From the IMG/VR virus record IMGVR_UViG_3300027744_000008: a stretch of 64,000 bases of DNA, one strand, 5' to 3'. Position numbers and translations under genes: made by a program. How positions within the stretch are numbered: position 1 is the first letter of the stretch; each line of letters starts with the position of its first letter. Under the pieces are notes generated by a model. That model did not search any database. It had not been told where the DNA came from and saw only the letters and a program-made list of their open reading frames with translations. Source of the stretch: a virus (taxonomy: Duplodnaviria > Heunggongvirae > Uroviricota > Caudoviricetes). Shown piece after piece: positions 4,637-48,419 of the stretch.

Positions 4637-5182
4637 ATGCAATACTGGAAAAGACTTGAGCTAGACAACTGGGAATTGATTGCAGAAAAAACTTTAGATT
4701 ACATAAAGAATCATACTACACTATTAGATCAAAGTACGTTCAAGGGTCCCTTCAACCCATTTGATACAGCACATTTTATTTCAGAAGTTCCGGAACTGGC
4801 TCAATCATTTGCAAAGCATGGATTACACTACGAAGCAGCCAATGTATATGTTATGTGGGCAAATGAACAAAGTTTTCCACACAAGGATTACACCGATTCG
4901 ATTGGAAGAATAAACATTCCCATATTGAATTGTGCCGGGTCATCGACTATATTTTACTCAAACTTGCAGGGAAGAAGAGTGGTACTACCAACCGGTGCAC
5001 CATTCTATATGACGATGAATAGAAAAAGTTTAATACAAGTCGGCAGCATAGAAATTAACCAACCAACCATTATACGTATATGTGAAGGTCACGATGTTAA
5101 TCTACCTAACAATATGCCCGTTCCTAGAATCACACTAACTGTAAGTACAGTTCCAGACTGTGGTCTACTACTTGACGATTAG
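4637..5182 (+). CDS. 2OG-Fe(II) oxygenase/cupin-like protein (paralog of 503..1057)
   Basis: FPHKD...RINIPILNC...GHDV...PRITLTVST. Confidence 0.65.
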   Translation: MQYWKRLELDNWELIAEKTLDYIKNHTTLLDQSTFKGPFNPFDTAHFISEVPELAQSFAKHGLHYEAANVYVMWANEQSFPHKDYTDSIGRINIPILNCAGSSTIFYSNLQGRRVVLPTGAPFYMTMNRKSLIQVGSIEINQPTIIRICEGHDVNLPNNMPVPRITLTVSTVPDCGLLLDD

Positions 5183-6348
5183 ACTGCTTCAATTACAGCA
5201 ATTGAAGTACGTCCGCCGAATCCAAAACTAGCCTTCATAAATGCTTTGCTATGTAACGATCGTTGCTCAGTAATAACTCGAGAGTCGTTTGTGAGTGGGT
5301 TTGTTAGCCCAACGTTGGGGTGAATAAATCCATTCTTCACAGCTTCAATTCCATAGACACTTTCTAGTGCGCCACATGCGCTCATTGTATGTCCAATATA
5401 TCCTTTGAAGGCAACTATCGGAATGTCTATATCTTCAAACTTTTTAGCAAATGCATCAAACTCAATATCGTCTCCAACAGGGGTACTAGTTGCATGTGCA
5501 TTAAAAAAGGAGATATCATCATAGGATAATCCCGACTGATTAACAGCGCGATCCATAAGAAGTCCTTGATGTTCCCCTGTTGGATCGTGAGCAGTGATAG
5601 TGTGTACTTTTGCTCCGGCAACTATTGATCTGATAACAGCCTTTGGTGTAAGATTACGCTCTCTAAGAGTTGCCTCATCGCACAAGTATAAAAGTGTACC
5701 GCCTTCACCTTGCAAAAATCCATCACGGCTTTTATCAAAAGGTCTGCAAATGCCGCCATCTGTCGTTGATATCGCACTGGTGCATTGCCAGTGATATTGA
5801 AAACTTGGCCATAGTGGTGATTCAACACCTCCTACTAGGGCAGCTCCAGTGTCCCCTGCTCTGATCATTAGATAGGCAAGATATAGATTAAACATGCTAC
5901 TGGAGCAGGCTGCGTTAAGACTAGCACTGAATCCCTCTAAATTCAATCTTTTAGAAAGCAATGAACTCAATAGATCATGATTTGCCATGAATAATCTAGT
6001 AGGGCTAAATCGCCTTTGATGACTATCAAATGCCCTTAAAAAATCATCTTTAATGGACGATCCCAGTGCCATAGCACTGACAAGGATTGCAGTATCCTTT
6101 GGTAACTCGTATTTGCCGGCAAGTTCATCAGCAAGATCAACTGCCATCTTAAATCCAATATTTTCTTTTGGATTAAATTCTATTGGCATTTGATATCCGT
6201 TAGTTGTTAATACTTGTGGATATTCACTAGTGTCATATCTAGTAATTGGCTGAGGACCTTTAGTCAACGGCATGTTAAGATAATTTGAGCTAGCATTAAC
6301 ACCTAGGCAGTCTCTTACTGCATAGTCAACTATGTAAACGTCTTTCAT
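5179..6348 (-). CDS. fabF: beta-ketoacyl-ACP synthase (FabF/FabB-type)
   Basis: Cys-His-His triad in NAACSSS, NAHATST and KGYIGHT. Also CRPFDKSRDGFLQGEGG and a C-terminal SFGFGGR. Confidence 0.92.
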   Translation of the reverse strand: MKDVYIVDYAVRDCLGVNASSNYLNMPLTKGPQPITRYDTSEYPQVLTTNGYQMPIEFNPKENIGFKMAVDLADELAGKYELPKDTAILVSAMALGSSIKDDFLRAFDSHQRRFSPTRLFMANHDLLSSLLSKRLNLEGFSASLNAACSSSMFNLYLAYLMIRAGDTGAALVGGVESPLWPSFQYHWQCTSAISTTDGGICRPFDKSRDGFLQGEGGTLLYLCDEATLRERNLTPKAVIRSIVAGAKVHTITAHDPTGEHQGLLMDRAVNQSGLSYDDISFFNAHATSTPVGDDIEFDAFAKKFEDIDIPIVAFKGYIGHTMSACGALESVYGIEAVKNGFIHPNVGLTNPLTNDSRVITEQRSLHSKAFMKASFGFGGRTSIAVIEAV

Positions 6349-14738: not shown

Positions 14739-15329
14739 ATGCCTAATTTAGTACCAATGGTCATTGAGACCGAAGCCCGTGGCGAACGTGCATATGACAT
14801 TTACAGTCGATTGCTCAAAGATCGTATTGTTATGTTGGACACGGATGTCAACGAACATTCAGCAAGTTTAATTGTAGCTCAACTTTTATTTTTAGAAAGT
14901 CAAGGAAATGAAGATATTCACTTTTTCATTAATAGCCCTGGCGGTGTTGTTACCGCTGGTATGGCTATCTATGATACAATGCAGTTCATCAGACCCGACA
15001 TATCGACCATCGTTATGGGACAGGCTTGCAGTATGGGTTCTCTTCTTGCCACTGCTGGCGCTGCTGGCAAACGGAAAATTCTACCTAACGCACGTCATAT
15101 GATTCATCAGCCAAGTGGTGGTGCTGGCGGACAGGCTACAGACATGGAAATCCAAGTTAAAGAGATTCTAAAAATGAAACAAAGTCTAACCCAAATTTAT
15201 GTCAAGCATAATAGCAAGGGCAAAACTTTTGAAGAGTTTCACGCAGGTATGGAACGAGATAATTTTATGAGTGCTCAAGAAGCTGTAGATTTTGGTTTGG
15301 CGGACGAGATTATAACAAAACGCCCATAA
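14739..15329 (+). CDS. clpP: ATP-dependent Clp protease proteolytic subunit
   Basis: [27 protein letters not shown] (Ser), MIHQP (His) and ERDNFMSA (Asp). Confidence 0.95.
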
Positions 15330-18888: not shown

Positions 18889-19707
18889 ATGAAAAAGTAT
18901 GTTGTTGGATTAGGGTGTAGTTGGACTCAAGGTCAGGGAGGGTATCCTAAAGAAATATGGGACAGATATAATGGTCGTATAGATATCAGTGGCGACGAAG
19001 ATCAACCTCTTAGAGAGTACGAACACTTTAACAGTTGGGTCAACTCTCTGTGCCGAGACTACCTTAGTGATCACATACCTATAAATCTTGGTGTACGAGG
19101 TTGCGGCAATCGTGGCGCTGTAAAACAATTATATTTTAGCAACATCGATTGGTCGCAAGGTTCCGGGTATATTATTTTAATGTTGTCCGGGCTTGACCGA
19201 TTCGACTTCTTAAGAGAAGATCTTCTAAAAGACGATAACGCATACCATCATTACAAATACAATACTATCTGGCCTATTGAATCTTCGGATAATGAACTAT
19301 GGCGTGGATACGCAAAAGCATGGTCGGAACAGATTGTGGCCCATGAAACAATGCTAGCCATGTTAGAACTTCAAAATTTTTGCAGATTATACAATTACAA
19401 ACTTATTGTAGCAAATGGTTTTAATACTGTAGACTTAGAAAATCACCTAGGGGAATTTGCTAAACCATTAGCTAATAAATTTAATTGGGATTATTATCTG
19501 CATAGCAAGACACCATATGTAGCTATGATAGAAAAATTAATAGAGTTAGATCAAGCAATAGACCAAAAAGACTGGAAAGATTTCTATACCAAATATAGTA
19601 ATTTTAATTATCCTAAAGAGTATCTTACTAATTGCTCGCATCCTACAATTAAAGGATATAATACTATTGCAGGTGAGCTTAATAAATTTATTTCTTTGTC
19701 AGCGTAA
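18889..19707 (+). CDS. SGNH/GDSL-like protein
   Basis: GLGCSWTQG (block I), NLGVRGCGN (block II) and CSHPTIKGY (block V). Confidence 0.6.
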   Translation: MKKYVVGLGCSWTQGQGGYPKEIWDRYNGRIDISGDEDQPLREYEHFNSWVNSLCRDYLSDHIPINLGVRGCGNRGAVKQLYFSNIDWSQGSGYIILMLSGLDRFDFLREDLLKDDNAYHHYKYNTIWPIESSDNELWRGYAKAWSEQIVAHETMLAMLELQNFCRLYNYKLIVANGFNTVDLENHLGEFAKPLANKFNWDYYLHSKTPYVAMIEKLIELDQAIDQKDWKDFYTKYSNFNYPKEYLTNCSHPTIKGYNTIAGELNKFISLSA

Positions 19708-19753
19708 TTAAGGGCTAGTGCGTTATAATATGTATGTTCTAAAGGAATTTAAA

Positions 19754-19864
19754 ATGAAATTAGTTATTGCCGCCGAGGAAGATGAATTATCACCGTACAT
19801 AACTGTTAGGCTAGCATTGGCCAGAGCCAAAGCAATGGCAAAGTACAGAGAAGTTTGGGGGTAA
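19754..19864 (+). CDS. 36-aa small protein (not in ORF track)
   Basis: MKLVIAAEEDELSPYITVRLALARAKAMAKYREVWG*. AAAGGA SD; followed by a terminator. Confidence 0.6.
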   Translation: MKLVIAAEEDELSPYITVRLALARAKAMAKYREVWG

Positions 19865-19883
19865 TACCCTAAACTTTTTTTTT
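19851..19883 (+). terminator. intrinsic terminator
   Basis: AAGTTTGGGGGT-AAT-ACCCTAAACTT hairpin (one bulge) running into a 9-T tract (19875-83). Confidence 0.6.
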
Positions 19884-19911
19884 GGTCATTATATTATTAG
19901 ATAATTACTGT

Positions 19912-21273
19912 ATGACCTCTAAACAACGAATTATAGAAATAAAAGAAATAACCGATCAAATAAGCCCTACATTTTGTTTGGCTAAATGGCATCATACTAC
20001 AATCTATCTTCAAACAGGAGAAACACATAGTTGTTATCATCCTGCTCCACACAAAATACCACTTGAAGAGATTAAAACTAATCCTAGTGCAATTCATAAT
20101 ACCATAGAGAAAAAACAACAACGTGCAGAAATGCTAGCAGGTGAAAAACCCCAAGGTTGTCAATACTGCTGGAACATAGAGGCATTAGGTGATGACTATA
20201 TCAGTGATCGACATGATCGTAACGCCAGTATCTATAAGCCGGAGAGACTACAGGAAATTATAGATCAAGGTCCAGATTTTAATGTCAACCCCGAATATCT
20301 TGAAATAAGTTTTGGTAATGAATGTAATTTCAAATGCGGTTACTGCCATCCCAAAGCATCTAGTAGTTTTTATAAAGAGATAAAAGAACACGGTGCATAT
20401 CCTGTTAACAATCACAGATTTACTGTTGACGGATTGTTTATCTACGAAGAAGACGTCAATCCATATGTAGCAGCGTGGTGGCGTTGGTGGCCTACACTGC
20501 GTAAAACTTTAAACATTCTGCGTATAACTGGAGGTGAGCCTCTACTGCAAAAGAACACATTCCTATTACTAGATAACTTAGATAGATATCCACTGCCCAA
20601 TTTAGAATTAAACATTAACAGTAATCTGGGTGTGAAACCCCTATTAGTAAATCGACTTGCAGAAAAAGTTGAAAAACTTCGTGTAGAAGGTAAAATTAGA
20701 AACTTCAAACTGTTTACCAGTATTGACACTTGGGGAGAACGAGCGGAATATATACGTACTGGATTAGACTTAGAAGTATGGGAAAGTAATTTCCATACAT
20801 ATCTAACTAAGACAGCGAACCCAATAACTTTTATGATTACTTTTAACATCTTAGCAGTTACTAGTTTCAAAAGTCTATTAGAAAAAATACTTGAATGGAG
20901 GAAACAGTATGGTTGGTATTCTAGTACTAATGAACATCGTATTCGTTTTGATACTCCTTACCTAAAGGAACCTTTACAATATGACATGAACATATTGCCC
21001 AAAGCAGAGTTCTTACCTTATATGCAAGAGGCTTTAGAATTCATGGCCGCTAATGTTGACAACTCTGCTGTTGATAAATTTACTGATCTAGAATATGAAA
21101 AGTTTCGTAGAGTAGTAACCTACATGGAAACTACTATATATTCAGATGCAAAAATAAACGAAGGTCGTGCAGACTTTTATCGTTGGTTTACAGAGTATGA
21201 TCGTAGACGAAAAACTGATTTTGTTAAAACATTTCCAGAATTAGAAAACTTTTATAAGTCTTGTAAAACATAA
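19912..21273 (+). CDS. radical SAM protein with N-terminal Cys-rich (twitch/SPASM-like) domain
   Basis: CNFKCGYC and ITGGEP; N-terminal CLAKW...CYH...CQYC. Confidence 0.85.
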   Translation: MTSKQRIIEIKEITDQISPTFCLAKWHHTTIYLQTGETHSCYHPAPHKIPLEEIKTNPSAIHNTIEKKQQRAEMLAGEKPQGCQYCWNIEALGDDYISDRHDRNASIYKPERLQEIIDQGPDFNVNPEYLEISFGNECNFKCGYCHPKASSSFYKEIKEHGAYPVNNHRFTVDGLFIYEEDVNPYVAAWWRWWPTLRKTLNILRITGGEPLLQKNTFLLLDNLDRYPLPNLELNINSNLGVKPLLVNRLAEKVEKLRVEGKIRNFKLFTSIDTWGERAEYIRTGLDLEVWESNFHTYLTKTANPITFMITFNILAVTSFKSLLEKILEWRKQYGWYSSTNEHRIRFDTPYLKEPLQYDMNILPKAEFLPYMQEALEFMAANVDNSAVDKFTDLEYEKFRRVVTYMETTIYSDAKINEGRADFYRWFTEYDRRRKTDFVKTFPELENFYKSCKT

Positions 21274-22562
21274 TGAATACAATCAAAATGGCCTATAACT
21301 GGATAGGTCCAAACGGGCCTCTTCCAAATATTGAAATACCCAACATTTTAAATTTAGCAGATGCTTCTATTGGTGGATCGTTAACTTCTAATAGGATTTG
21401 GATAGAAGGTATATGGCATATCTTTAAAGACCATTTTGAATTAAGTCCTACTGCTGTTATCCAAAATACTGATAAATTCATATACCCGTTAACTCTACAC
21501 TGGCGTGTGGACTTTGATGCTTATTTTACTACAGGCGATGGCATTTTAGAATATGCTCACCTTAGTAACGATATACTACACAAAATTAAACACGGCAACG
21601 GTTATATTTTGATAGATCATAGTCCCGAAGCATTTGTCTACGATAAACATCTTAATGTGATACATTCTTATTTCTCATCTCACGGTATTCCTTTATATAA
21701 GATATTGTATCTAACCGGATGTATGAATATCGAAGAAGTGTACAACAGCTATTGCAATCGATATCGTATCCCCGATGACAAAAGTCATAGAATAAAATTA
21801 GTATGCTATCCTTGTAGCATAGATAGTGCATCAAAGGATATTGAAAATTTAGAAGTTGAGCCTAGCTATAATACAGAAAGTATGCCTAAAAAAATATTTT
21901 TGAGTTGGAATAGAAGGCATAAAGCTCACAGAAACATGTTGACCTTGCTATTTGATAAAAACAATCTGCTAGATTGCAGTTACTTTAGTATGTCTAAATG
22001 TCAACCGGAGTTTCCTGATATAAAATTTGAAGATATTTTTCAAGACCACTGGCTTGACTTTTTTGATTTGTCAAAAGAAGACATATCTAACCTAGTAAAA
22101 AAACTACCACTAGTAGTCGACGGGGAGACTGCTATTAATAAAATGATGAAAGGTACACAATCTACATCAGAAAATTTTTACAAAAGCAGTCTAATAAGTA
22201 TCATAACAGAAACTAACTTTGTAGAAAATGAAATTTCAATGACAGAAAAATCTATTAAACCTGTTAAAGAAAAACATCCGTTTATCATGGTAGGTGTAAA
22301 AGGCACACTAAAAGCATATCATAGGCTCGGCTATAAAACATTTAGTGATTTTTGGAGTGAAGATTACGATAACATAGAGAACTGTTGGGAACGACTCCGT
22401 GAAATTATTAGGGTATGCACAGAAATTTCACAGTGGGATAGTGCTAAAATTCTAGATTTTAAAAGAAATGTTAAACCAATATTAGATCATAATTTTCAAA
22501 TTGCAAAAGCAGGCATCAGTCAACAAGCTGCAAACAGTATTATTCAACATGTCAACACATGA
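21273..22562 (+). CDS. putative glycosyltransferase (GT10/fucosyltransferase-like TEK motif)
   Basis: ISIITET...SMTEKSIKP...HPF...GYKTFSDFWSEDYD; paralog of 22559 and 25751. Confidence 0.5.
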   Translation: MNTIKMAYNWIGPNGPLPNIEIPNILNLADASIGGSLTSNRIWIEGIWHIFKDHFELSPTAVIQNTDKFIYPLTLHWRVDFDAYFTTGDGILEYAHLSNDILHKIKHGNGYILIDHSPEAFVYDKHLNVIHSYFSSHGIPLYKILYLTGCMNIEEVYNSYCNRYRIPDDKSHRIKLVCYPCSIDSASKDIENLEVEPSYNTESMPKKIFLSWNRRHKAHRNMLTLLFDKNNLLDCSYFSMSKCQPEFPDIKFEDIFQDHWLDFFDLSKEDISNLVKKLPLVVDGETAINKMMKGTQSTSENFYKSSLISIITETNFVENEISMTEKSIKPVKEKHPFIMVGVKGTLKAYHRLGYKTFSDFWSEDYDNIENCWERLREIIRVCTEISQWDSAKILDFKRNVKPILDHNFQIAKAGISQQAANSIIQHVNT

Positions 22563-23638
22563 AAATATATTATTTGCGATGTTACAATCTAGAATTAACA
22601 GAAAATCTAGAATTAGTAGCCAACAGAATTATCGACAGCGACCCCGATAGGATAATAATTTGGTGTGCCCAAGAATATGCCTACTATGAAATATTTGATC
22701 AGTTGTTTGATCTATTAGAAAACTGGGCCACATCTAACAATAAATTAGTTCATTTGATCACCACTTGTAAATCTGGATATGTTAGGCCGTGGATTCTAGC
22801 AGAAGGCACCTACGGTATACTATATAATTTTATGTTTGCACACATGATGGGATTCCCTACTGACCCAAAAATATGCGATAAAAAATTCATATACCTTAAC
22901 AATAACAAAGCACCAAGTCAAATCAATCCCACTAAAATTTTTACTTGTTATAATCACACTGCACATGCCCAAAGAGGACTGCTGGTAGATCTATTGGCAA
23001 GAGACAATTTGATAAAATTAGGCATAGTGACCTTTCACTATCCCGAACAATATCAGTGGATTTATCATAATGGAACAAAACTTCTTGACGAATTAGATTT
23101 CAAATTAGATAACAATAAGTACTCACCCGATATGGTTCCACAAAGTCAAACTTCTGCTTTTATGGACGTAGTTACAGAATCTCGATATGATATCAATGAA
23201 TACTTTATTACAGAAAAAACATTAAAAAGTCTAATGTTGTATAGACCCTTTCTAGTGTTAAGCTGTCAAGGGTTTCACAAATACCTTGTTGACCGCCTTG
23301 GACTCAGATTATACGATGAACTATTTGACTACGGTTTTGATAATGAACCATCGATCAACAATCGCGTTGAAGGCATCATAAAAAACATTAAACATATAGA
23401 AAAAAGTTTTAGCAGTACTACACAGTTAAATGAAATGTATGATTCTATTAGACCAAAATTATTATATAACAGAAATAGAATAGAAGAAATATTTGTCAAC
23501 AAGGATTTAATTGTACCAAAATCACTTAAATTCTTAATGGAACAAGACAATATTACAATAGAAAATGCCGGGTATGCAGACCTACCTGATTATATGATAA
23601 AAATGGGTTGGTCTAATATAAAGTTAAATAATGTATGA
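22559..23638 (+). CDS. putative glycosyltransferase (GT10-like TEK motif)
   Basis: DVVTES...FITEKTLK...RPF...LYDELFDYGFD. Confidence 0.5.
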   Translation: MKIYYLRCYNLELTENLELVANRIIDSDPDRIIIWCAQEYAYYEIFDQLFDLLENWATSNNKLVHLITTCKSGYVRPWILAEGTYGILYNFMFAHMMGFPTDPKICDKKFIYLNNNKAPSQINPTKIFTCYNHTAHAQRGLLVDLLARDNLIKLGIVTFHYPEQYQWIYHNGTKLLDELDFKLDNNKYSPDMVPQSQTSAFMDVVTESRYDINEYFITEKTLKSLMLYRPFLVLSCQGFHKYLVDRLGLRLYDELFDYGFDNEPSINNRVEGIIKNIKHIEKSFSSTTQLNEMYDSIRPKLLYNRNRIEEIFVNKDLIVPKSLKFLMEQDNITIENAGYADLPDYMIKMGWSNIKLNNV

Positions 23639-25764
23639 CTCCTGAAGAAGCCAATGACAAACACCTAATGACTCTTAAAGCCATTGCAGAGTATGCTAAA
23701 CCTGCACAGCAAAAGAATCTTACTAGTGTACAAATAGACTATGCTATTAGAAAAACTAGATTAATGCTAGTGATACTGCCGCAATGGGCAGCAGAATTTC
23801 CGCCGTTTAATCTCTGTAGACTTAGCTCTGTTGTTAAAGAAGCAGGTTACGAAAGCCGTATCATTGATGCTAATATTAAAGGCTATCAATACTATAAGAA
23901 ACATGTAGAAGATAAGATAAATTTTAAACTATGGGATCCAACAACAATCTGGCGTTGGGTCGGTGACAACTATAATGATATACATTCGTTAATTGAACCA
24001 ATATTAAATGAATGTTTAGACTCTATTATAGAGTACAATCCTACTATAGTAGGATTCAGCATGTATCAAATGAATGAAGAGCCTACTAAATGGATGGCTC
24101 AAGAACTTAAAAAACGTATGCCTCACGTTAAAATAGCAGTAGGCGGACCCAATGTACAAAAAGGATATTTTGTTAAACAACCTTACTATGATTATGTAGT
24201 CAGCGGCGAAGGTGAGGAAGCCATCCTAACGATATTAGATGAGATTGAAAGCGGGTTAGCAGGCACTGATCAAAAGCATCTAAGTCAGCCGGAAGGACAG
24301 AGATTAAATCTTAACAACTTCCCCATGCCTGACTATGACACTATAGATTTTAATGAATATAAAATACCCAACGGCGTTACTACAGAATTAAGTAGAGGGT
24401 GCATTGCCAAGTGTACATTCTGCGAGGAAACCCATTTCTGGAAATATAGACAGAGACAGGCTATTGACGCACTAACTGAGGTGGAATACTTATACAACGA
24501 AAAAGGCACAACAGTCTTTTGGTTCATTGACAGTCTTGTAAACGGCAATCTAAAAGAACTTAGGGCATTTGCCAAGGGTGTTGTGGCCAAGGGACTTGAT
24601 ATCAAATGGACTGGATATGCTAGGCATGATGGTCGTATGGATGTAGAATACTTGAAAGATTTATATGCCAGTGGATGCATGATGTTGAACTACGGATCAG
24701 AAGCAGGCAGTCAAAATGTATTAGATAGCATGGCCAAAGGGGTCACTATTGCAGAGATGGAACAGAATTTTAGAGACGGTCATGCTATAGGAATCAAAGC
24801 AGCAACAAACTGGATTGTGGGATTTCCGACTGAAACATATCAAAACTATGCAGATACTATGACCATGTTATGGCGTGTTAGAGATATGAGCGTACATAAT
24901 ATGAGTACAGGTGTAGGATTTTTTAACGGCCCTGAAACTATTGTGGGACAAAATCCAGAAAAGTTTAATATCTCAGATCATAAATATTTAGGTTATTGGA
25001 TTAGTAAAGACTTTACTAAGGGCGGCAGTCATTTGCTCATGCGTGTAAAATGTATGAGTATCTTCCTTGATCAGATTATAGGCAACAGAGGTATTAACTA
25101 TCCTCACAGACCTGCATTGGCCAGAGATCATTACACGATAAAATATATCAAACCTGGTATAGAAAAGGATGTTAACTACGAACAATTTGATTACGATATA
25201 ATCAAAACTGATATTAATCCTTATGCCGACTCTTTAGTAAACGAGATATGGCCATTGCTAAGGATGCTATGGAAGACACGTGGCGGCTATACTGCTACTA
25301 TTAAATTTAGTCCCGAATTAGACGATACAGAGTTTGGTCGTCATTTCGGCACTGGTCTATACACTGCCGAATTTAAGTTTACTATCTTAGAAAGAGGTAA
25401 TTGGGCAGCTGATTTTAAATATAAATTTGTACAGAATGTTGAGCCGGATCAATATAGGACTGCTAATAGATGGGGTGCATTTTTTGCACAAGATTATAGT
25501 AAGATGGAGGGCAATCCTGCTGCCCGTGCAAGACAACTGGCCAAGCCCGCATGGGGCAAAGATGGGCGAGGCGAAGTGGAATTTAATCAGTTAATCGATG
25601 AAGAAAAAGAATTAAATCGCACAATTGATTTTGGTTTTAACTATGCTTGGAAAGACACAGGTGACTGGAGCGACTATAGGAAGTATGAGATTAGCATTCC
25701 AGGAGCAGATATTCCAAGAGTAGAGGAACACCCCTTAGTGTTCAAACCACTTATAAAACATTGA
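23635..25764 (+). CDS. cobalamin-binding radical SAM enzyme (class B-like)
   Basis: N-terminal B12-binding region (PPFNL...VGFS...IAVGGP...GEGE); SRGCIAKCTFCEE; IDSLVNG; YGSEAGSQNVLDSMAKG; WIVGFPTET. Confidence 0.85.
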   Translation: MTPEEANDKHLMTLKAIAEYAKPAQQKNLTSVQIDYAIRKTRLMLVILPQWAAEFPPFNLCRLSSVVKEAGYESRIIDANIKGYQYYKKHVEDKINFKLWDPTTIWRWVGDNYNDIHSLIEPILNECLDSIIEYNPTIVGFSMYQMNEEPTKWMAQELKKRMPHVKIAVGGPNVQKGYFVKQPYYDYVVSGEGEEAILTILDEIESGLAGTDQKHLSQPEGQRLNLNNFPMPDYDTIDFNEYKIPNGVTTELSRGCIAKCTFCEETHFWKYRQRQAIDALTEVEYLYNEKGTTVFWFIDSLVNGNLKELRAFAKGVVAKGLDIKWTGYARHDGRMDVEYLKDLYASGCMMLNYGSEAGSQNVLDSMAKGVTIAEMEQNFRDGHAIGIKAATNWIVGFPTETYQNYADTMTMLWRVRDMSVHNMSTGVGFFNGPETIVGQNPEKFNISDHKYLGYWISKDFTKGGSHLLMRVKCMSIFLDQIIGNRGINYPHRPALARDHYTIKYIKPGIEKDVNYEQFDYDIIKTDINPYADSLVNEIWPLLRMLWKTRGGYTATIKFSPELDDTEFGRHFGTGLYTAEFKFTILERGNWAADFKYKFVQNVEPDQYRTANRWGAFFAQDYSKMEGNPAARARQLAKPAWGKDGRGEVEFNQLIDEEKELNRTIDFGFNYAWKDTGDWSDYRKYEISIPGADIPRVEEHPLVFKPLIKH

Positions 25765-26947
25765 GGTTTGTGTTGATCTTAAACCATTTTGTTATATGAT
25801 GGTTGTGTGCTAACACTTCAGACATCTCATTATACATCTCTTGTAGTTCATCAATAGACTTGCTGTCAATTAGATCAATGACATCTAATATCTTTAACAT
25901 GCGCCGTTCGTGATTTTCTTCAAGGTCATAACTTTCATCCCACCAACGATCAAAAGTGTTAAACCCAAAAGTTTTAAGATACTTTAAACTGTAGGGAGGT
26001 GCTACAAGTATTAAAGGTAATTTTGCCCGTAAAGGGTTTAAAGTTTTTTCACTGATATTTGCAAATGGCTGCGCGAACCGTGTTTCATTGACTACTGCAC
26101 AAAAACATTCTGCGTAACTGTTGATAAATTCAGTTGAGACAGGAGGTGCAACCTTACCAGGAATACACACAGAATTAAACTTGTCAACCGTTACAGAAGA
26201 TGTATCCCTATCAATGTGTAGATTAGAATTTTCTAAGACAGCCGATCCTGCTACTAATTTTAAAAATCTCAATGGGTTAGAATTTTCTAATTGATCTAAA
26301 TCAAACCAAACATTTTCTCGAAGTTTATCAAACTCGCATTTGATATGCCAACTATAATTTCCTTCTATGTTAACTAGATGAGACATGGAAATGTGTCTAT
26401 GAGTAGCGTATCTCCAATTTGAACACCAAAACTTTTTAGATATGTTGTGGTTAATAGTGTTGTATTTTGTAGGATGATTTAGGCTTCTTAAGAAGATATC
26501 AAAGCAGTGTAATTTTAAATTTGGATATTGGTCTTGTAGTAATTGTATCCCATACTCACAGGTATATACATTGATAAATTCAAGATTGTACGCTACTCTA
26601 AATTTTTCAACACTGTCTAATTCATCACTTCTTATATCAGATATACTTTCATCACCTTTAAATTCACTGTAAAATGATCTATTGTGAAATTCATTTGTTG
26701 ATAATTTAAAACACAAAGGCTCAAAGAAATAAACATCTAGTGCAGATAATTTTGACTTAACTTCTAAATTATCAAATTCGTTGATAAAGTTAGTACCAGT
26801 ATAGATAAAAGACGGAGTCTTGATGGTTTTAATATTTTTAAAGACATTCCATCTCAATTGAGAAACAGCCAAAAATCCCAAATGATCTTCTTGACCTGGA
26901 ATGTTTACCCAATACAATCCCGGCGTGTATTCAAGATCTAAGTTCAT
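25751..26947 (-). CDS. putative glycosyltransferase (GT10-like SEK motif)
   Basis: AVVNET...NISEKTLNP...LP...GFNTFDRWWDESYD. Confidence 0.5.
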   Translation of the reverse strand: MNLDLEYTPGLYWVNIPGQEDHLGFLAVSQLRWNVFKNIKTIKTPSFIYTGTNFINEFDNLEVKSKLSALDVYFFEPLCFKLSTNEFHNRSFYSEFKGDESISDIRSDELDSVEKFRVAYNLEFINVYTCEYGIQLLQDQYPNLKLHCFDIFLRSLNHPTKYNTINHNISKKFWCSNWRYATHRHISMSHLVNIEGNYSWHIKCEFDKLRENVWFDLDQLENSNPLRFLKLVAGSAVLENSNLHIDRDTSSVTVDKFNSVCIPGKVAPPVSTEFINSYAECFCAVVNETRFAQPFANISEKTLNPLRAKLPLILVAPPYSLKYLKTFGFNTFDRWWDESYDLEENHERRMLKILDVIDLIDSKSIDELQEMYNEMSEVLAHNHHITKWFKINTNLNVL

Positions 26948-27903
26948 GATTCTCTAATTAAATCCAATGTTACACAATGAAAACATCCGCCTAATGTCCT
27001 ACTATGACGCATGGGCAACATAGCGCATTCTATTCCGTATTTTTCTAATTCTACTCTAAGATTATGTTGATGTTCTTCAACTATAACAAGGCTTGGACTA
27101 ACACTTAATAAATTTACATTAATCCATTTAGATGAATTACACCATCCAGGATAATGCCCAACATCAACAGGTTCAGGAGAAAATATAACGTCCCAGTCCT
27201 GAAATGCCCTGGGCAACATATCTTTACTCTTAACTCTGCTAGGATTTACCAGCATGAGTCCTTCTCTTAGGAAGGCCACGGTACTGTCAATGTGCATATA
27301 ACTATAAACATTTTCTAATGTATGCACGGGAACATTTAGTAACTCTTGAAGATACTGAGCACCATTTTTGTTACCACTGTTTGAAACCAAATACATTAGT
27401 TTGTCATTGGCTTTAATAACATTGGCAGCATCAAACTTTGGATGATGATTTTGTAAGGCTAGTACCTCTGGATCGCCGAGACATTCTAGATTGTACATGT
27501 CATCGCCTTGATAATTAGGTACCACATGTATATTTTCTAAATGTTCAGCATAGGCTAGATACTCATTTTCACGGGCACGTAGACTCATAGGGGCTGCAAC
27601 TGCCTTATTGCCGTAGGCTATTATAGTATCTCTTGGACAATAATTGTAGTACTTTACAGGCTCTCTATGTGGGCGAACCACTTCTACACTGCACGACTTT
27701 AGAAAATTACTCAGCGTTTCTAAATCTTCATTTGCTTCATCTATTACTTGTGTTGGATATTGCCCTTGATGAATAGTGGATTCATCTTTTACATCAGCAT
27801 AGTTTACTGTGCGTAGACTAATATCTAAAGAGGGAATTGTTGCATAATCAGCAACTCCAACTACTACTTTTTTAAGGGTATCCCATTCGTTTAAAGCATT
27901 CAT
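26944..27903 (-). CDS. amidinotransferase (glycine/inosamine-phosphate amidinotransferase family)
   Basis: NEWDTLKKVVVG, CPRD, FDAAN, HIDST and GGCFHCVTLD (catalytic Asp/His/Cys). Confidence 0.9.
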   Translation of the reverse strand: MNALNEWDTLKKVVVGVADYATIPSLDISLRTVNYADVKDESTIHQGQYPTQVIDEANEDLETLSNFLKSCSVEVVRPHREPVKYYNYCPRDTIIAYGNKAVAAPMSLRARENEYLAYAEHLENIHVVPNYQGDDMYNLECLGDPEVLALQNHHPKFDAANVIKANDKLMYLVSNSGNKNGAQYLQELLNVPVHTLENVYSYMHIDSTVAFLREGLMLVNPSRVKSKDMLPRAFQDWDVIFSPEPVDVGHYPGWCNSSKWINVNLLSVSPSLVIVEEHQHNLRVELEKYGIECAMLPMRHSRTLGGCFHCVTLDLIRES

Positions 27904-27904
27904 T

Positions 27905-28660
27905 TTAAAATCCAACTGGTTGTCTGTAGTGCAAATTATATTTTTCTTTAATCATTGTAGTAATTATAGGAGCTAAGTCTTTATTTTTCGGTAAAGGAAT
28001 CATGTCAATGATGTCTTGGTGTATGCCGTGGCAAATATCCACTGTTTGATAATTCATCTCTAAATTTAAACTAGGGTATACTTGATCTCTTAAAAAATTT
28101 AAATGATGTAATACTGTAGGATGATCATCATATTGATATTGGCCAAACGCTTCAGTTCTATTGTAATCAAAAATAGTGTCAGTAGGGATAAATTCTTTAT
28201 AAAACTTAAACAATTTATTTTCTTTTTCTGTTAGATCTCTAGCATTACTTTCAAATTTTAATAAAGGTGTTACATTACTTTGAAAAGGAATTTTGTACAT
28301 CTTATTTGCAGATATGATTGCTGTGGAATTTTTTATAATATCGTTTTCAAGAGACCAGTATTTGCTAATAAATTTCCTATCATAAAATTCTTCATGAAAA
28401 ATATTCCCGTGTGTTTGCCAGTGTCTAATGTAACGATCTTCTCTATGCCAATGACTCCATAAAACAATTACTAAATCATCTTCTGTAATAGTATTCCTGA
28501 GATCGCATTCAACAAGTCTATGAAATATTCCTACATTACCTATTCCGCTCATGCCCCAGTTTTCACTAGGCACACCTAGGTCCCAAGCCATTATATCTGC
28601 CCATGTAGGCCATCCAAATCTTGTAAACGAACAACCAAAAGTAAAAAGTCTCTTATACAT
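27905..28660 (-). CDS. SGNH/GDSL-like protein
   Basis: FTFGCSFT, NWGMSGIGN and DDHPTVLHH; paralog of 18889..19707. Confidence 0.6.
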   Translation of the reverse strand: MYKRLFTFGCSFTRFGWPTWADIMAWDLGVPSENWGMSGIGNVGIFHRLVECDLRNTITEDDLVIVLWSHWHREDRYIRHWQTHGNIFHEEFYDRKFISKYWSLENDIIKNSTAIISANKMYKIPFQSNVTPLLKFESNARDLTEKENKLFKFYKEFIPTDTIFDYNRTEAFGQYQYDDHPTVLHHLNFLRDQVYPSLNLEMNYQTVDICHGIHQDIIDMIPLPKNKDLAPIITTMIKEKYNLHYRQPVGF

Positions 28661-29243
28661 TGAATACCTTCATTTTAGGGAGATATGGATAATCGTTGTA
28701 ACTCCAAGATGTCGGAGTAGAATTTATAGCAGTTGGCAACTTTTCTAACCCTAGTTGAGCAGTTTCGGGTGTCATATAATAATGATAACCCATTGTTTCA
28801 ATATCCTGCATTGCCCAAGGCTTATCTGATGTTCTTCCATCGTAACACAATTTCTTTAATGTTGTATACGCATCTTGGTTATCTGTTAAGATTGCGCCGC
28901 CTCGTACAAGATTAAGATGTTTTTTATACTGGAAACTTAGACACATCAATGTGTTGGGAATGTAACCTTTTTCTTTCCAATAGACCGCGGCATCTATGAT
29001 ATTTGTATTGCCTAAATAATAATAGTCCTGCCATTTAACTTCTTCAAAGGCCCATTTGATTCCTAACTTTTCAAATGTAAAAGGAAGAGACACGTAGGTC
29101 TGAGAGGGACAAGTGGCTGCTAGAACTTTATTATATCTTAATGACAGCTCAATAGCATGGGTGCAACAATCTACAGCAACGGCAAATGTAGACCCATAAA
29201 ATTTAGCAATAGCTTTTTCAAACTCATCAACTTTATTAAACAT
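28653..29243 (-). CDS. short DegT/DnrJ/EryC1/StrS PLP-dependent aminotransferase
   Basis: EFEKAIAKFYG...AVAVDCCTHA, IIDAA, LSFQYKKHL (PLP Lys), GGAILTD and GYHYYM. Confidence 0.82.
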   Translation of the reverse strand: MFNKVDEFEKAIAKFYGSTFAVAVDCCTHAIELSLRYNKVLAATCPSQTYVSLPFTFEKLGIKWAFEEVKWQDYYYLGNTNIIDAAVYWKEKGYIPNTLMCLSFQYKKHLNLVRGGAILTDNQDAYTTLKKLCYDGRTSDKPWAMQDIETMGYHYYMTPETAQLGLEKLPTAINSTPTSWSYNDYPYLPKMKVFNV

Positions 29244-29739
29244 TTTTTGTAAAAGTAACTTGTGCAGTGTACCTAGGTTCAAGTCCTATGTTGGCTGCTA
29301 GATGGGGAGTATCGTATTGCCATATAATATAGTCACCTGCTGACCATTTAGTAAAAGGAGTATCGTCAACTTCTAATATGTGCCCGGACCTCCAATCTTC
29401 TAAAAATACTATAGCTCTATAAATTGTAGTAGGATCTGTAATATTATGTACATTAATATAGGTTTTGTAACTATCACTGTGTCGTGGCAGCAAATCTCCG
29501 GTACTCATTTTAAGAAAATTAACACCTACATTTGTGCCGCCAAATAGTGTGAAGAAAGGTTCAGCCCAATCTGGCATGATATTTTTCATATCATATATTC
29601 CGCCCACTGAATCTCTCTCAGAATATCCTAAAGATTTCCACAGTTCTAAATCTTTAGGATTGTTAAACTGTGCATCTCGATATGTAAGTAGGGCATGTTT
29701 ATCGCCCCAGAATGGTTTAATCAGACCCGTCTCAAACAA
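29236..29739 (-). CDS. 2OG-Fe(II) oxygenase-like (Asp/Asn hydroxylase-like cupin)
   Basis: LPRHSD...TPHLAANIGLEPRYTAQVT; TTG start with a GGAGAG SD. Confidence 0.72.
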   Translation of the reverse strand: MFETGLIKPFWGDKHALLTYRDAQFNNPKDLELWKSLGYSERDSVGGIYDMKNIMPDWAEPFFTLFGGTNVGVNFLKMSTGDLLPRHSDSYKTYINVHNITDPTTIYRAIVFLEDWRSGHILEVDDTPFTKWSAGDYIIWQYDTPHLAANIGLEPRYTAQVTFTKNV

Positions 29740-29816
29740 AATGTCTCTCCAATAAATATGCTACTATTATTTATTTGAGGAACCTATGCGAATAATTTTT
29801 ATCAATGTGAGAATGT

Positions 29817-30575
29817 ATGAAAATAATACTAGTAACTGGCGGATTTGACCCCCTACATTCTGGACACATTTCCTATTTCGAAGCTGCTAAACGGTTAGGA
29901 AATAAGCTAGTAGTAGGACTAAATTCAGATGCGTGGCTCGAACGTAAAAAGGGTCGGGCTTTCATGCCCTTTGAAGAACGACAACGTATTATACAAAGTC
30001 TTCATATGGTAGATATGGTTATAGATTTTGATGATAATGATGGCACTGCCTGTGATGCCATTGCTAAAGTTCGCCTACATTACCCTATGAAATATGTAAA
30101 AGTAATCTTTGCCAACGGCGGTGATCGTACAGCAAACAATATACCTGAGATGACTGTACCAAATGTTGAGTTTGTATTTGGTGTAGGTGGTGAAAATAAA
30201 ATCAATTCAAGTAGCTGGATCTTAGATGAATGGCGGTCTCCTAAAACAGAACGACCGTGGGGATATTATCGAGTATTACATGAGGTCCCTGGAACTAAAG
30301 TAAAAGAACTTACAGTCATGCCTGGACAAAGTCTAAGCCTACAACGCCATAAAAACAGACATGAGATTTGGCATGTAGCAGAAGGCAAATGTGCAGTTGA
30401 ACAACGTATGTCTAGCGGTTATATTTTGCCAACAGTTAATTTAGAAAAATACAGTCAAATCAATATACCAATTAACAATTGGCATAGACTGTATAATCCA
30501 TTTGAGGAACCTTGCAAGATCATCGAAATACAATACGGCAAGTCTTGTGATGAAGAAGATATCGAACGGATTTAA
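29817..30575 (+). CDS. cytidylyltransferase-like (HIGH) domain fused to a mannose-6-phosphate isomerase type II cupin
   Basis: VTGGFDPLHSGH, FANGGDR and NSSS; C-terminal ERPWGYYRVL...SLSLQRH...EIW...WHRL.N...IIEIQYG...EEDIER. Confidence 0.88.
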   Translation: MKIILVTGGFDPLHSGHISYFEAAKRLGNKLVVGLNSDAWLERKKGRAFMPFEERQRIIQSLHMVDMVIDFDDNDGTACDAIAKVRLHYPMKYVKVIFANGGDRTANNIPEMTVPNVEFVFGVGGENKINSSSWILDEWRSPKTERPWGYYRVLHEVPGTKVKELTVMPGQSLSLQRHKNRHEIWHVAEGKCAVEQRMSSGYILPTVNLEKYSQINIPINNWHRLYNPFEEPCKIIEIQYGKSCDEEDIERI

Positions 30576-30608
30576 TTAAAGCTATATATAATATAAAGGA
30601 CTATTAAC

Positions 30609-31535
30609 ATGCAAAAAATTCTTATCACTGGCCTGTCAGGATTCATTGGCGGCTATCTTAAAGACCGTTTAGAATCAAAATATCAAATTTTTGATCTTGA
30701 TCGAGACCTATTAGACAAAGAAGGTATCGATCAACGCCTACAAGAAGTTGATCCCGATTTTATTATTCACCTGGCTGCAAGAACTGAAGTAGAAAAAAGT
30801 TTTTATGAGCAAACAAGTTTCAGTAGTGTTAACTATGTTGGCACTGTCAACATGATTGAATCAGCTAGGCATTTAAAAAATTTAAAATTATTTGTTTTTA
30901 GCAGTACTATGGAGACCTACGGCTGGCAACCCGAAAGCGATTTGATTCGTGACGGCCAAGAATATACACTGCCTGTCTTCACAGAAGAAACTAGGCAACA
31001 TCCAAATGCTCCATATGCTGTGGCCAAGGTGGGATGTGAATTATATCTAGAATATGCACAACGGTCATTTAACTTTCCATTCTGTGCATTCAGACAGACT
31101 AATAGCTATGGACGTAAAGATAATGATTTCTTTGTAGTAGAACAGATTATTTCACAAATGTTAAAAAATCCCAATGAAATTAATCTAGGTTATGGAGAAC
31201 CATATCGTAACTTCCTTTGGATTGACGACTTAATTCGGTTATATGAAACAGTAATCGACAAACATGAGCAAGCTCGTGGAGAAATCTTCTGCACCGGTCC
31301 AAATAATGCTCTTAAAATCAAAGACCTTGTTGACAAGATAGCCAAGAAAATTGATTGGGATGGACAGGTTAATTGGAACACTAAGCCAAAGAGGGACGGA
31401 GAAATTTGGGTACTAAACTCTAGCCCTGCCAAAGCAGAACGACTGCTAGGATGGAAACCAGAAATGGATTTGGACACCGGGTTGGATCTTACTATCCAAA
31501 TCTGGAGAGAAAAACTTCTAACCAAAATTGCTTGA
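30609..31535 (+). CDS. NAD-dependent NDP-sugar epimerase/dehydratase
   Basis: ITGLSGFIG, IHLAA, FSST and PYAVAK (YxxxK). Confidence 0.9.
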   Translation: MQKILITGLSGFIGGYLKDRLESKYQIFDLDRDLLDKEGIDQRLQEVDPDFIIHLAARTEVEKSFYEQTSFSSVNYVGTVNMIESARHLKNLKLFVFSSTMETYGWQPESDLIRDGQEYTLPVFTEETRQHPNAPYAVAKVGCELYLEYAQRSFNFPFCAFRQTNSYGRKDNDFFVVEQIISQMLKNPNEINLGYGEPYRNFLWIDDLIRLYETVIDKHEQARGEIFCTGPNNALKIKDLVDKIAKKIDWDGQVNWNTKPKRDGEIWVLNSSPAKAERLLGWKPEMDLDTGLDLTIQIWREKLLTKIA

Positions 31536-34757: not shown

Positions 34758-35315
34758 ATGGCATACAATTTCATTCAAAAATTCATTGTTGAAGGTCGTA
34801 AAGACAAACTCATACAGTTAACATTGCCGTACGATCGCAACGATCTTGATCCTGTGAAATCTAAAGAAACCATAGATTATCACTACGGCACACTGTACAA
34901 AGCCTATGTTGATCGATATAATAAGGGCGAAGGTGATGACGATTTCAACGAAGCTGGTGCATTTTTACATAATATCTATTTTGGTCAACTACAAAAACCA
35001 GAGGGATCCAACAGACCCTATGATGCTATTTTACAGTTCATAGAAAAACATTTTGATACCTTTGATCGTTTCAAAGAAGAATTTGAAAAAACAGCCATGA
35101 AGATACAGGGCAGCGGGTGGGCATACCTAGCAGATGATGGCAAGATCAAAACCATTGTTAATCACGAAATTAGAAAAGATATTGTGTTATTAGTGGATTG
35201 GTGGGAACATGCTTGGGCTCTGGACTATCAAGCCGATAAAAAAAGATATCTAACCAACATATGGAAAATAATAGACTGGAGAATGATCAACGCTAGAGTT
35301 GGTCAAGTGTCTTAA
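34758..35315 (+). CDS. sod: Fe/Mn superoxide dismutase
   Basis: Metal ligands in DYHYG, LHNIYF and DWWEHAW; QGSGWAYL. Confidence 0.9.
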   Translation: MAYNFIQKFIVEGRKDKLIQLTLPYDRNDLDPVKSKETIDYHYGTLYKAYVDRYNKGEGDDDFNEAGAFLHNIYFGQLQKPEGSNRPYDAILQFIEKHFDTFDRFKEEFEKTAMKIQGSGWAYLADDGKIKTIVNHEIRKDIVLLVDWWEHAWALDYQADKKRYLTNIWKIIDWRMINARVGQVS

Positions 35316-47411: not shown

Positions 47412-48419
47412 ATGGCACGTAGAATACAACTAAGACGCGACACAGCGGCAAACTGGGCTAGCACAAATCCAGCGCTGGCGCAGGGTGAAATAGGTATAGA
47501 CTTAACCAGTAGTAAGATTAAAATAGGTAACGGTACTACATTATGGAATGCACTTGCCTATTGGGATGACGCAGACATTAATATTCCAAATGGTCGTGCG
47601 AATGTAACCGGTACTGCTAATACGGTTGGCGGTGGTGCAACGGTCGGAGTACGTAGTATATTAGCAATTGACTCAGCATTTGGTAGCAATGACGTAAATG
47701 CTCCAGCAAGCGCACAAGCAATACGTGGTCGTGTTACAGGTAGCAATCTAACTAAAACACGTAATTATGTAGCCGGTGTAACCGGTCAATACTTAGTTAC
47801 TGGTACCAATGCAAGCGAATTTATTAACACTGGTTTACTTGGTGTCGTAGGAGACCAAACAACTACAGCAAATGCGGCTGTTGTTGCTTACTTAGACGGT
47901 GACGGTGGATTGACTACCGCTGGTTCAGCATATGGTGTCAGTATGAAAAACTCAACTCCTGGATCAGGATTTGATTACGGTCTTGATTTACAATTTATTG
48001 ATTTAAATGTAGCCGGAACAACTGCCCCATTCAAGCAAGCAGATATTCGTTTTAATAACGGAGCCTTACAAAGAGACACTGGCACAGTTTCATGTCCAGG
48101 CAACGCCAGTACTGTGGTTTACACAGCGTCAGGTCAAGGTCAACACACTATAAGATTATTGATACAGGTCGAAGGTAGCGAAGGTGCGCCAGAGGGATGG
48201 GACACACAAGCATGTGAAATGATCATAGCCAAAAGTTTTAGAACCGATGACGTAGCCGCAACAGTGTATGCTGTTGTACATACTAGTGCGGCACCATTGG
48301 CAACATTTACCGCACAGTGGAACGCACTGACCAGCAGAGTAGAAGTACTGTGCGCCACGCCCAGTGCCAACTCAGTATACGTTAGAACATTCGCAACAGA
48401 AATTACAACAGCAGATTAA
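47412..48419 (+). CDS. tail fibre/spike with Mtd_N (hyaluronidase N-terminal)-like domain
   Basis: RIQLRRDTAANWASTNPALAQGEIGIDL...KIKIGNGTTLWNAL.Y. Confidence 0.8.
   Translation: MARRIQLRRDTAANWASTNPALAQGEIGIDLTSSKIKIGNGTTLWNALAYWDDADINIPNGRANVTGTANTVGGGATVGVRSILAIDSAFGSNDVNAPASAQAIRGRVTGSNLTKTRNYVAGVTGQYLVTGTNASEFINTGLLGVVGDQTTTANAAVVAYLDGDGGLTTAGSAYGVSMKNSTPGSGFDYGLDLQFIDLNVAGTTAPFKQADIRFNNGALQRDTGTVSCPGNASTVVYTASGQGQHTIRLLIQVEGSEGAPEGWDTQACEMIIAKSFRTDDVAATVYAVVHTSAAPLATFTAQWNALTSRVEVLCATPSANSVYVRTFATEITTAD

Follow-up and report, generated by a model that had tools for sequence, protein, structure and literature searches.

A 64,000-nt stretch of DNA from a giant uncultured lake phage (Caudoviricetes; IMG/VR record IMGVR_UViG_3300027744_000008; hereafter the window) carries an island of 13 open reading frames (ORFs) at positions 18889-31535. 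The stretch is present in metagenomes from 2017 to 2025, and 14 DNA runs contain 85% or more of the words of the island region. We propose that this phage-encoded, wholly cytoplasmic island builds and tailors an amino/guanidino-sugar glycan, and we place the probability of this reading at roughly 0.6. The initial annotation had pictured a heavily modified sugar that is made and then transferred. The amino and amidino parts of that picture fit the nucleotide-sugar enzymes of the island, its StrB1-type amidinotransferase linked to an aminotransferase, and its three proteins of the GT-B glycosyltransferase fold. The "methyl" and "acyl" parts are suggested by family likeness. Scans against Pfam, PHROGs, and NCBIfam named a part of the protein set; with fold and motif evidence added, every earlier family call for the cluster genes was upheld, the oxygenase-like and SGNH-like calls mainly on motifs.

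The argument starts from a trio of minus-strand genes encoding the amidinotransferase, a half-size DegT-family aminotransferase (mini-DegT), and a small oxygenase-like protein. Linkage was counted in 67 fetched viral loci with at least 3 kb on either side of the amidinotransferase gene. Mini-DegT was present in 66 of these and the oxygenase-like gene in 59, and we therefore regard the trio as one functional unit. The same 67 loci held a GT-B paralogue in 41 cases, a radical S-adenosylmethionine (SAM) enzyme with an N-terminal twitch domain in 28, and a B12-binding radical SAM enzyme in 22.

The amidinotransferase aligned with StrB1 (1bwd) over residues 7-321 of 323 (E 6.5e-58), followed among solved structures by HsvA, AGAT, and SxtG. 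It keeps the catalytic Cys, His, and Asp, and the catalytic motifs FDAAN, HIDST, and FHC were invariant in six phage members. A profile scan placed the enzyme in at least 293 viral contigs. Distant relatives (22-24% identity) occur in the Campylobacter phages CP220, CPt10, CP20, and others, as well as in two Enterococcus phages.

Mini-DegT matched PF01041 at 57.9 bits (cut-off 19.8). Its homologues start at Met14, which leaves 196 residues, and the pyridoxal-phosphate-binding motifs D-A-A (Asp) and S-F-x-x-x-K (Lys) were invariant in 45 members. The predicted structure (predicted local distance difference test, pLDDT, 94) had DesI as its best structural match (Z 19.0, root-mean-square deviation (rmsd) 2.4, 184 residues aligned); as modelled, its structure is that of a sugar aminotransferase. 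Some 55 residues of the large domain are missing, as is the entire C-terminal domain, which puts the protein below the classical two-domain size (about 360-400 residues). Since nearly all of the best 120 among 7,658 database relatives measured 194-210 aa, this short form is the norm there, and mini-DegT is no fragment. A homodimer was predicted with a score of 0.85, against 0.00 for the best control, with runs agreeing on at least 97% of contacts and a partner pLDDT of at least 93. Of proteins solved as pairs, 20 of 30 attained the score mark applied, compared with 1 of 23 among those solved as single chains. As DegT dimers have already been solved, the prediction may simply reflect likeness to them.

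For the third member of the trio, the residues H87, D89, H146, and R156 (HxD...H...R) were invariant. It had no Pfam match, and its profile retrieved solved chains at chance level (AtsK, E ~0.8). About 20% of the members in its nearest Atlas clusters carry PF05118, and a homologue in cyanophage S-SCSM2R is annotated as a 2-oxoglutarate (2OG)-Fe(II) oxygenase. We consider this putative oxygenase the weakest assignment of the set.

The transfer step would fall to three proteins, GT-B a, b, and c, none of which matched Pfam at E <= 0.01. They are mutually alignable, clear paralogues sharing the motif E...EK...P...G. An alignment of 57 members was built from the three window paralogues and 54 relatives from related loci; Arg220, Glu325, and Lys326 (GT-B a numbering) are invariant. 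The initial annotation had named lack of a GT-B fold among the findings that would count against its reading, and we ran this test on GT-B a. Its model (pLDDT 89.3, predicted template-modelling score, pTM, 0.88) matched GT-B-type structures in all 50 listed Foldseek results, nearly all annotated as glycosyltransferases. In an exhaustive VIA search, 50 of the 50 matches listed were again GT-B-type, at Z 8-12, the best with Z 12.1 and rmsd 4.6 over 290 aligned residues. Structural matches included Gtf3, EXT1, T4 beta-glucosyltransferase, and GT10 fucosyltransferases. Because all top matches are GT-B, the test did not refute that reading; b and c are paralogues of a.

Searched against solved chains, the 57-member family profile returned none at E <= 10. 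As the structural scores were tied and the profile found no solved sequence, no CAZy family could be assigned. The nearest Pfam-bearing Atlas clusters were GT10, at a score of only 0.80, while the structural Atlas neighbours were all viral proteins lacking Pfam families. The family is large and virus-dominated, with 14,839 representative clusters at E <= 0.001. Fusions of a GT-B domain to a nucleoside diphosphate (NDP)-sugar short-chain dehydrogenase/reductase (SDR) recur (P0264, and a viral cluster whose 90 members are all Epimerase/GDP_Man_Dehyd), which ties the family to nucleotide-sugar chemistry. An orthologue of GT-B c adjoins the trio in four loci (L026, L066, L168, L175) and follows it in many phages. 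Many members of this unassigned family (P0123-P0151) are 740-1090 aa long and consist of two domains in tandem; seven of them were scanned, and neither half of any matched Pfam.

Two further genes would supply activated sugar. In the nucleotidyltransferase-cupin fusion, the N-terminal domain is cytidylyl/adenylyltransferase-like (PF01467) and of the RfaE-domain-II/TagD type, with RfaE domain II as its best match. The C-terminal domain is a phosphomannose-isomerase-type cupin (PF01050) that matches the end of GMP_PMI. The SDR has dTDP-glucose 4,6-dehydratase and LegB as its best NCBIfam matches and carries the motifs T-M-E and YxxxK. Its orthologues, at 53-55% identity, adjoin the trio in other phages, and genes of the UDP-glucose/GDP-mannose dehydrogenase family also lie beside the trio elsewhere.

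Both radical SAM enzymes were recognized by family models. The twitch enzyme matched NF033640 from end to end (324.8 bits, cut-off 170), and CxxxCxxC and four N-terminal Cys residues were invariant. Against solved structures it gave insignificant matches only. Relatives were found in 474 viral contigs, and in 51 of 80 viral loci a GT-B paralogue lay within 10 kb of the twitch gene. The family also occurs with no GT-B neighbour in the sister phages L005-L007. The B12 enzyme matched PF02310 (44.7 bits, cut-off 32.1) and PF04055 (43.9 bits, cut-off 29.5), with C-I-A-K-C-T-F-C as its radical SAM motif and a long C-terminal region beyond the named domains. It matched many class B families partially and none at the equivalog or family cut-off. 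The best of these partial NCBIfam matches was TIGR03975, a C-methyltransferase family for ribosomally synthesized and post-translationally modified peptides (RiPPs; 110.6 bits, cut-off 281.85). Among solved structures, even the best matches, to TokK and to an unnamed radical SAM core protein (9ccb), were weak. By family analogy, the enzyme is probably a C-methylase.

Relatives of the twitch enzyme were also present at 79 bacterial loci (L083-L161), mostly in metagenome bins of Bdellovibrionota, which are predatory bacteria. Tandem arrays of four or five twitch paralogues are common in this group (e.g. L099 3724-9470 and L102 7935-15618). The 79 loci shared no conserved neighbour (adjacent genes encode a methylase, RNase PH, GGDEF, PhoH, and Obg) and thus gave no functional clue. 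Some contigs binned as "MAG" outside the Bdellovibrionota (L128, L129, L131) also carry GT-B and mini-DegT genes, and look like phage DNA binned with bacteria. The one isolated phage in the collection with a twitch relative was the jumbo Ralstonia phage RsoM2USA (MG752970; L082; 217327-218748, 37% identity), where all neighbouring genes are annotated as hypothetical. RsoM2USA could serve as a culturable model for the protein.

The two SGNH copies of the island are barely alike pairwise. In a joint alignment of both with 23 relatives, the Gly-x-Ser-x-Thr, Gly-Asn, and His-Pro blocks were invariant. The nucleophile motif of copy 1 is GCS, while its relatives have GDS (G-L-G-D-S-F-T-Q-G, the canonical GDSFTQG). 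Among the 25 members, three matched Lipase_GDSL weakly (best E 5e-4) and two matched DUF6071; copies 1 and 2 of the window themselves matched no Pfam family. We accept both as SGNH-like on these motifs. The gene for copy 1 is absent from the closest relative of the window (L001).

A 36-aa ORF at 19754-19864 (+), preceded by a TTATAAT box and followed by a terminator-like hairpin with T-run (19858-19880), was considered as a RiPP precursor. We reject this reading, since the ORF corresponds to the conserved C-terminal end of an acidic protein of 112-124 aa. In the relatives L001, L008, L009, and L010, the full-length acidic protein precedes the radical SAM gene; in the window, SGNH copy 1 sits where the front part of this protein would be.

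The genes of the island are tightly packed, with a few exceptions (Table 1). The two arms described earlier as converging at 25751-25764 were recovered at those positions: the plus arm (18889-25764) meets the minus arm (29739-25751) in a 14-nt convergent overlap. Beyond a divergent spacer, a further plus-strand unit (29817-31535) points away from the minus arm. Nearly all junctions had likewise been called short, and this was borne out, with overlaps of 1, 4, 4, 4, and 8 nt and, once homologue-supported starts are used (amidinotransferase Met5, DegT Met14), gaps of 1 and 6 nt. The exceptions are 174-207 nt ahead of the twitch gene, the divergent spacer of 77 nt, and 33 nt ahead of the SDR gene.

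Table 1. Genes and intergenic feature of the island, with the basis of each assignment.
Feature	Position	Strand	Length and basis
SGNH/GDSL-like esterase or acyltransferase, copy 1	18889..19707	+	272 aa; motif alignment
N-terminal-twitch radical SAM enzyme	19915..21273 (ORF open from TTG 19882)	+	NF033640; homologues support start ~19915
GT-B glycosyltransferase-like protein a	21273..22562	+	429 aa; predicted structure
GT-B-like paralogue b	22559..23638	+	359 aa; paralogue alignment
B12-binding (class B) radical SAM enzyme	23635..25764	+	709 aa; PF02310 + PF04055
GT-B-like paralogue c	25751..26947	-	398 aa; paralogue alignment
StrB1-type arginine-dependent amidinotransferase	26944..27915	-	likely start Met5 at 27903
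SGNH-like protein, copy 2	27905..28660	-	251 aa; motif FGCSFT
Half-size DegT-family sugar aminotransferase	28653..29243	-	196 aa from Met14; PF01041
Small 2OG/Fe(II)-oxygenase-like cupin	29236..29739	-	167 aa; HxD...H...R
Divergent spacer with ATAAATA on each strand	29740..29816		candidate late-type promoters, both arms
Nucleotidyltransferase-cupin fusion	29817..30575	+	PF01467 + PF01050
Extended SDR, NDP-sugar 4,6-dehydratase- or epimerase-like	30609..31535	+	308 aa; PF16363 + PF01370

Copies of ATAAATA lie on either side of the divergent spacer, at 29752 (+) and 29774 (-). Of the 11 copies in the window, six precede a start on their own strand by at most 90 nt, against an expectation of about 0.4, and the two spacer copies may be late-type promoters of both arms. 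Scans for sigma-70 promoters and for terminators gave nothing clearly above shuffles. Neither Rfam nor tRNA scans had a hit in 17-34 kb, and megablast of the whole region against isolated phages gave no match. Parts of both arms are covered by metatranscriptome contigs that come from four studies and match the window exactly, with DNA carry-over as a possible source. Several stretches of the region were uncovered within single runs, and we draw nothing from these holes.

The same gene set in the two-arm convergent layout recurs in L001, L026, L066, and L162-164, of which L026, L066, and L162-164 keep the full layout within different phage backbones. Recurrence in other phage contigs indicates that the convergent architecture did not arise by chance. 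Sister phages share flanks with the window (ligase, MazG, and a 279-aa protein upstream; a 401-aa protein, queD, and uvdE downstream), and between these flanks we found at least five different islands. The first type is that of the window (13 genes) and of L001 (12, lacking SGNH copy 1). The second, in L168, joins the trio and a single GT-B gene to a dehydrogenase gene and four radical SAM genes. A third (L002-L004, L008-L010) combines radical SAM, SDR, GT-B, and SGNH genes; a fourth (L011, L012) has four radical SAM genes and an SGNH-like gene; and the fifth (L005-L007) consists of a radical SAM gene and one small gene. Relative to L001, GT-B a (76% identity), GT-B b (59%), and SGNH copy 2 (71%) are more diverged than their neighbours (85-94%). 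This suggests a hypervariable slot under diversifying selection on its product, in a pattern that resembles surface-polysaccharide loci.

All island enzymes look cytoplasmic and soluble. Membrane-like segments are absent from the cluster proteins (hydropathy over 19 residues peaks at 1.58), and the family-scan matches included no flippase, polymerase, or polyprenyl-phosphate (lipid-carrier) transferase. A self-contained route to a host-surface or exported polysaccharide is therefore less likely. About 4 kb downstream of the island lies a block of giant proteins (35937-61359, +; ORFs of 3721, 1981, and 889 aa), interleaved with two Mtd_N tropism-determinant proteins (47412-48419 and 56796-58670) and also holding a concanavalin-like lectin-domain protein (54388-55374). 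Its G+C content is 0.47-0.49, compared with about 0.35-0.40 elsewhere. The block probably comprises fibre or receptor-binding genes. The soluble enzymes, the nearby fibre-type block, and the ATAAATA copies are hints that favour a virion target. Also encoded in the window are a ClpP protease (PF00574, E 4e-75) at 14739-15329 (+) and an Fe/Mn superoxide dismutase at 34758-35315 (+). The initial annotation had further suggested that the sugar might receive an acyl chain made by a cluster at 1-11 kb, and this link is unsupported. A scan of viral contigs with the 1065-2360 protein came up empty, and the 5179-6348 protein was unmatched in five related records that are 11-60% complete; absence is demonstrated in neither case.

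From the observed gene order, families and folds, catalytic motifs, and linkage, we infer substrates, order of steps, product, and target as follows. The nucleotidyltransferase-cupin and the SDR would activate a hexose phosphate to an NDP-keto(deoxy)sugar via 4,6-dehydration, and the oxygenase-like protein may supply or prepare the keto position. Mini-DegT would transaminate the ketone to an amine, onto which the StrB1-type enzyme would move the amidino group of arginine, giving a guanidino sugar. The three GT-B paralogues could then add sugars stepwise to form a short glycan on a soluble acceptor. Finally, the B12 enzyme would probably C-methylate the product, the twitch enzyme would perform some radical chemistry on it, and the two SGNH proteins may add or remove O-acyl groups. 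As acceptor, we rank the phage's own virion proteins first, followed by DNA or a free metabolite. Under the most specific form of the proposal, which we offer tentatively, the phage coats its own particle (e.g. the giant fibre-type proteins) with a cationic, guanidino, C-methylated oligosaccharide, and island swaps change its "serotype".

Several points weigh against an amino/guanidino-sugar glycan. StrB1 itself acts on a phosphorylated cyclitol rather than a sugar nucleotide. The GT-B family has neither a Pfam nor a solved sequence match, such that transferase activity is deduced from the modelled fold and motifs. Truncation of mini-DegT means that its substrate may differ from those of classical NDP-sugar aminotransferases, and the putative 2OG oxygenase is called from a motif and weak family links. 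The twitch family, occurring as it does apart from GT-B genes in L005-L007 and, beside unrelated housekeeping genes, in Bdellovibrionota, may act on a non-sugar substrate. More generally, the donor, acceptor, and product of every enzyme here are inferred.

Three other accounts deserve consideration. The glycan could reside on phage DNA as a hypermodified base, shielding it against host nucleases, which we judge improbable. T4 offers a precedent, as its GT-B enzymes glycosylate hydroxymethylcytosine. The T4 beta- and alpha-glucosyltransferases are among our structural matches (Z 11.8 and 10.4), but these scores are tied with many GT-Bs, and dozens of other GT-B families are at least as similar. 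The position of the island among DNA-metabolism genes (ligase, MazG, queD, UvdE) would also suit such a role; these flanking genes, however, form a conserved backbone whatever the island content. Hypervariability is compatible with a restriction arms race, whereas no hydroxymethylase or base-activating enzyme was found in the scanned parts of the window. Similarly unlikely is a peptide or protein substrate for the radical SAM enzymes, and perhaps for the oxygenase and amidinotransferase too, in a RiPP-like maturation of a glycosylated peptide or virion protein. Twitch/SPASM enzymes commonly modify peptides, and in Bdellovibrionota the twitch genes form tandem arrays of their own. The sub-threshold RiPP match of the B12 enzyme points the same way, as does the Atlas connection of the small oxygenase to Asp/Asn hydroxylase-type proteins. 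No conserved precursor peptide accompanies these enzymes, though, the 36-aa ORF being a remnant; the aminotransferase is structurally of the sugar type, and the trio keeps company with nucleotide-sugar enzymes.

Likewise doubtful is a free cationic pseudo-oligosaccharide, of aminoglycoside or aminocyclitol type, as the product of the island: a secondary metabolite that could be directed at host ribosomes or competing phages. DegT aminotransferases, the twitch radical SAM enzyme BtrN, the B12 methylase GenK, and GT-B enzymes all belong to the aminoglycoside tool kit. The closest solved relative of the amidinotransferase comes from streptomycin biosynthesis, the island enzymes are all soluble, and the S-SCSM2R homologues have been called "antibiotic synthesis genes" by their authors (PMC12801897). 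Pfam and NCBIfam scans of the cluster nevertheless returned no inositol-phosphate synthase, 2-deoxy-scyllo-inosose synthase, or inositol dehydrogenase, and no kinase or phosphatase for a StrB1-type phosphorylated substrate, exporter, or self-resistance gene. The usual neighbours of the trio are nucleotide-sugar enzymes, and the fast turnover of transferases among sister phages suits a surface structure better. We continue to favour an amino/guanidino-sugar glycan.

If virions or DNA carry the product, phage-host recognition and the evasion of defences would gain a new layer. A guanidino, C-methylated virion glycan would be a glycan chemistry undescribed for any virus, and we know of no description of guanidino sugars in glycoconjugates. 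The probable guanidino-sugar enzyme set is widespread in uncultured aquatic phages, as judged by the viral contigs with the amidinotransferase. New here are two large families with no described function, the half-size sugar aminotransferase and the GT-B family that lacks a Pfam model. The enzymes would be compact tools to put amino and guanidino groups on sugars, and the trio is small, soluble, and amenable to direct in vitro work.

Among known systems, the streptidine branch of streptomycin biosynthesis (StsC, then StrB1; 1BWD) likewise couples a DegT aminotransferase to an arginine-dependent amidinotransferase from the family seen here. The island differs in that its aminotransferase is half-size, its partners are nucleotide-sugar enzymes and GT-Bs, and it resides in a phage rather than an actinomycete cluster. 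No cyclitol-forming or cyclitol-oxidising enzyme, kinase, or phosphatase of a streptidine pathway was among the Pfam/NCBIfam matches of the 13 genes and their neighbours. The GT10 alpha-1,3-fucosyltransferases resemble GT-B a in structure (Z 11.6 to Helicobacter pylori FucT, 5ZOI; 10.5 to human FUT9), and the Glu-Lys pair and C-terminal-domain Arg of the GT-B family presumably resemble the GDP-fucose-binding residues of GT10 enzymes. Unlike GT10, none of the three paralogues has a PF00852 sequence match, and the structural scores are tied with many GT-B families.

In the literature searched, homologues of the trio are described only for the cyanophage S-SCSM2R (PMC12801897). There, the trio within ORF301-310 (PQ898602) is annotated as "AHBA synthase" (195 aa), 2OG oxygenase (164 aa), and "inosamine amidinotransferase" (PMC12801897). 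The authors present the "AHBA synthase", a radical SAM protein, and the amidinotransferase as putative antibiotic synthesis genes "never reported in cyanophage genomes" (PMC12801897). S-SCSM2R shares with the window the same trio and an adjoining radical SAM gene among glycosyltransferases, and its amidinotransferase is 60% identical to that of the window. It differs in being a T4-like marine cyanophage whose transferases are annotated as GT2 or GT25 and whose radical SAM protein is short (266 aa).

Phage glycosylation is known for T-even DNA and mycobacteriophage virions, with simple sugars. To our knowledge, neither amino- or guanidino-sugar chemistry nor radical SAM tailoring is known from mycobacteriophage glycosylation loci. 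Virion O-glycosylation in mycobacteriophages is the work of phage-encoded glycosyltransferases, whose targets are capsid and tail proteins of the phage itself (Freeman et al. 2023, as cited in PMC12619734). Those loci resemble the island in encoding phage glycosyltransferases that act in the cytoplasm, and differ in being small (one to few transferases) and in using host sugar nucleotides; for the island, a virion target is a proposal. The island itself is real, conserved, and intact, and what it adds to phage-encoded glycosylation is a probable guanidino-sugar chemistry.

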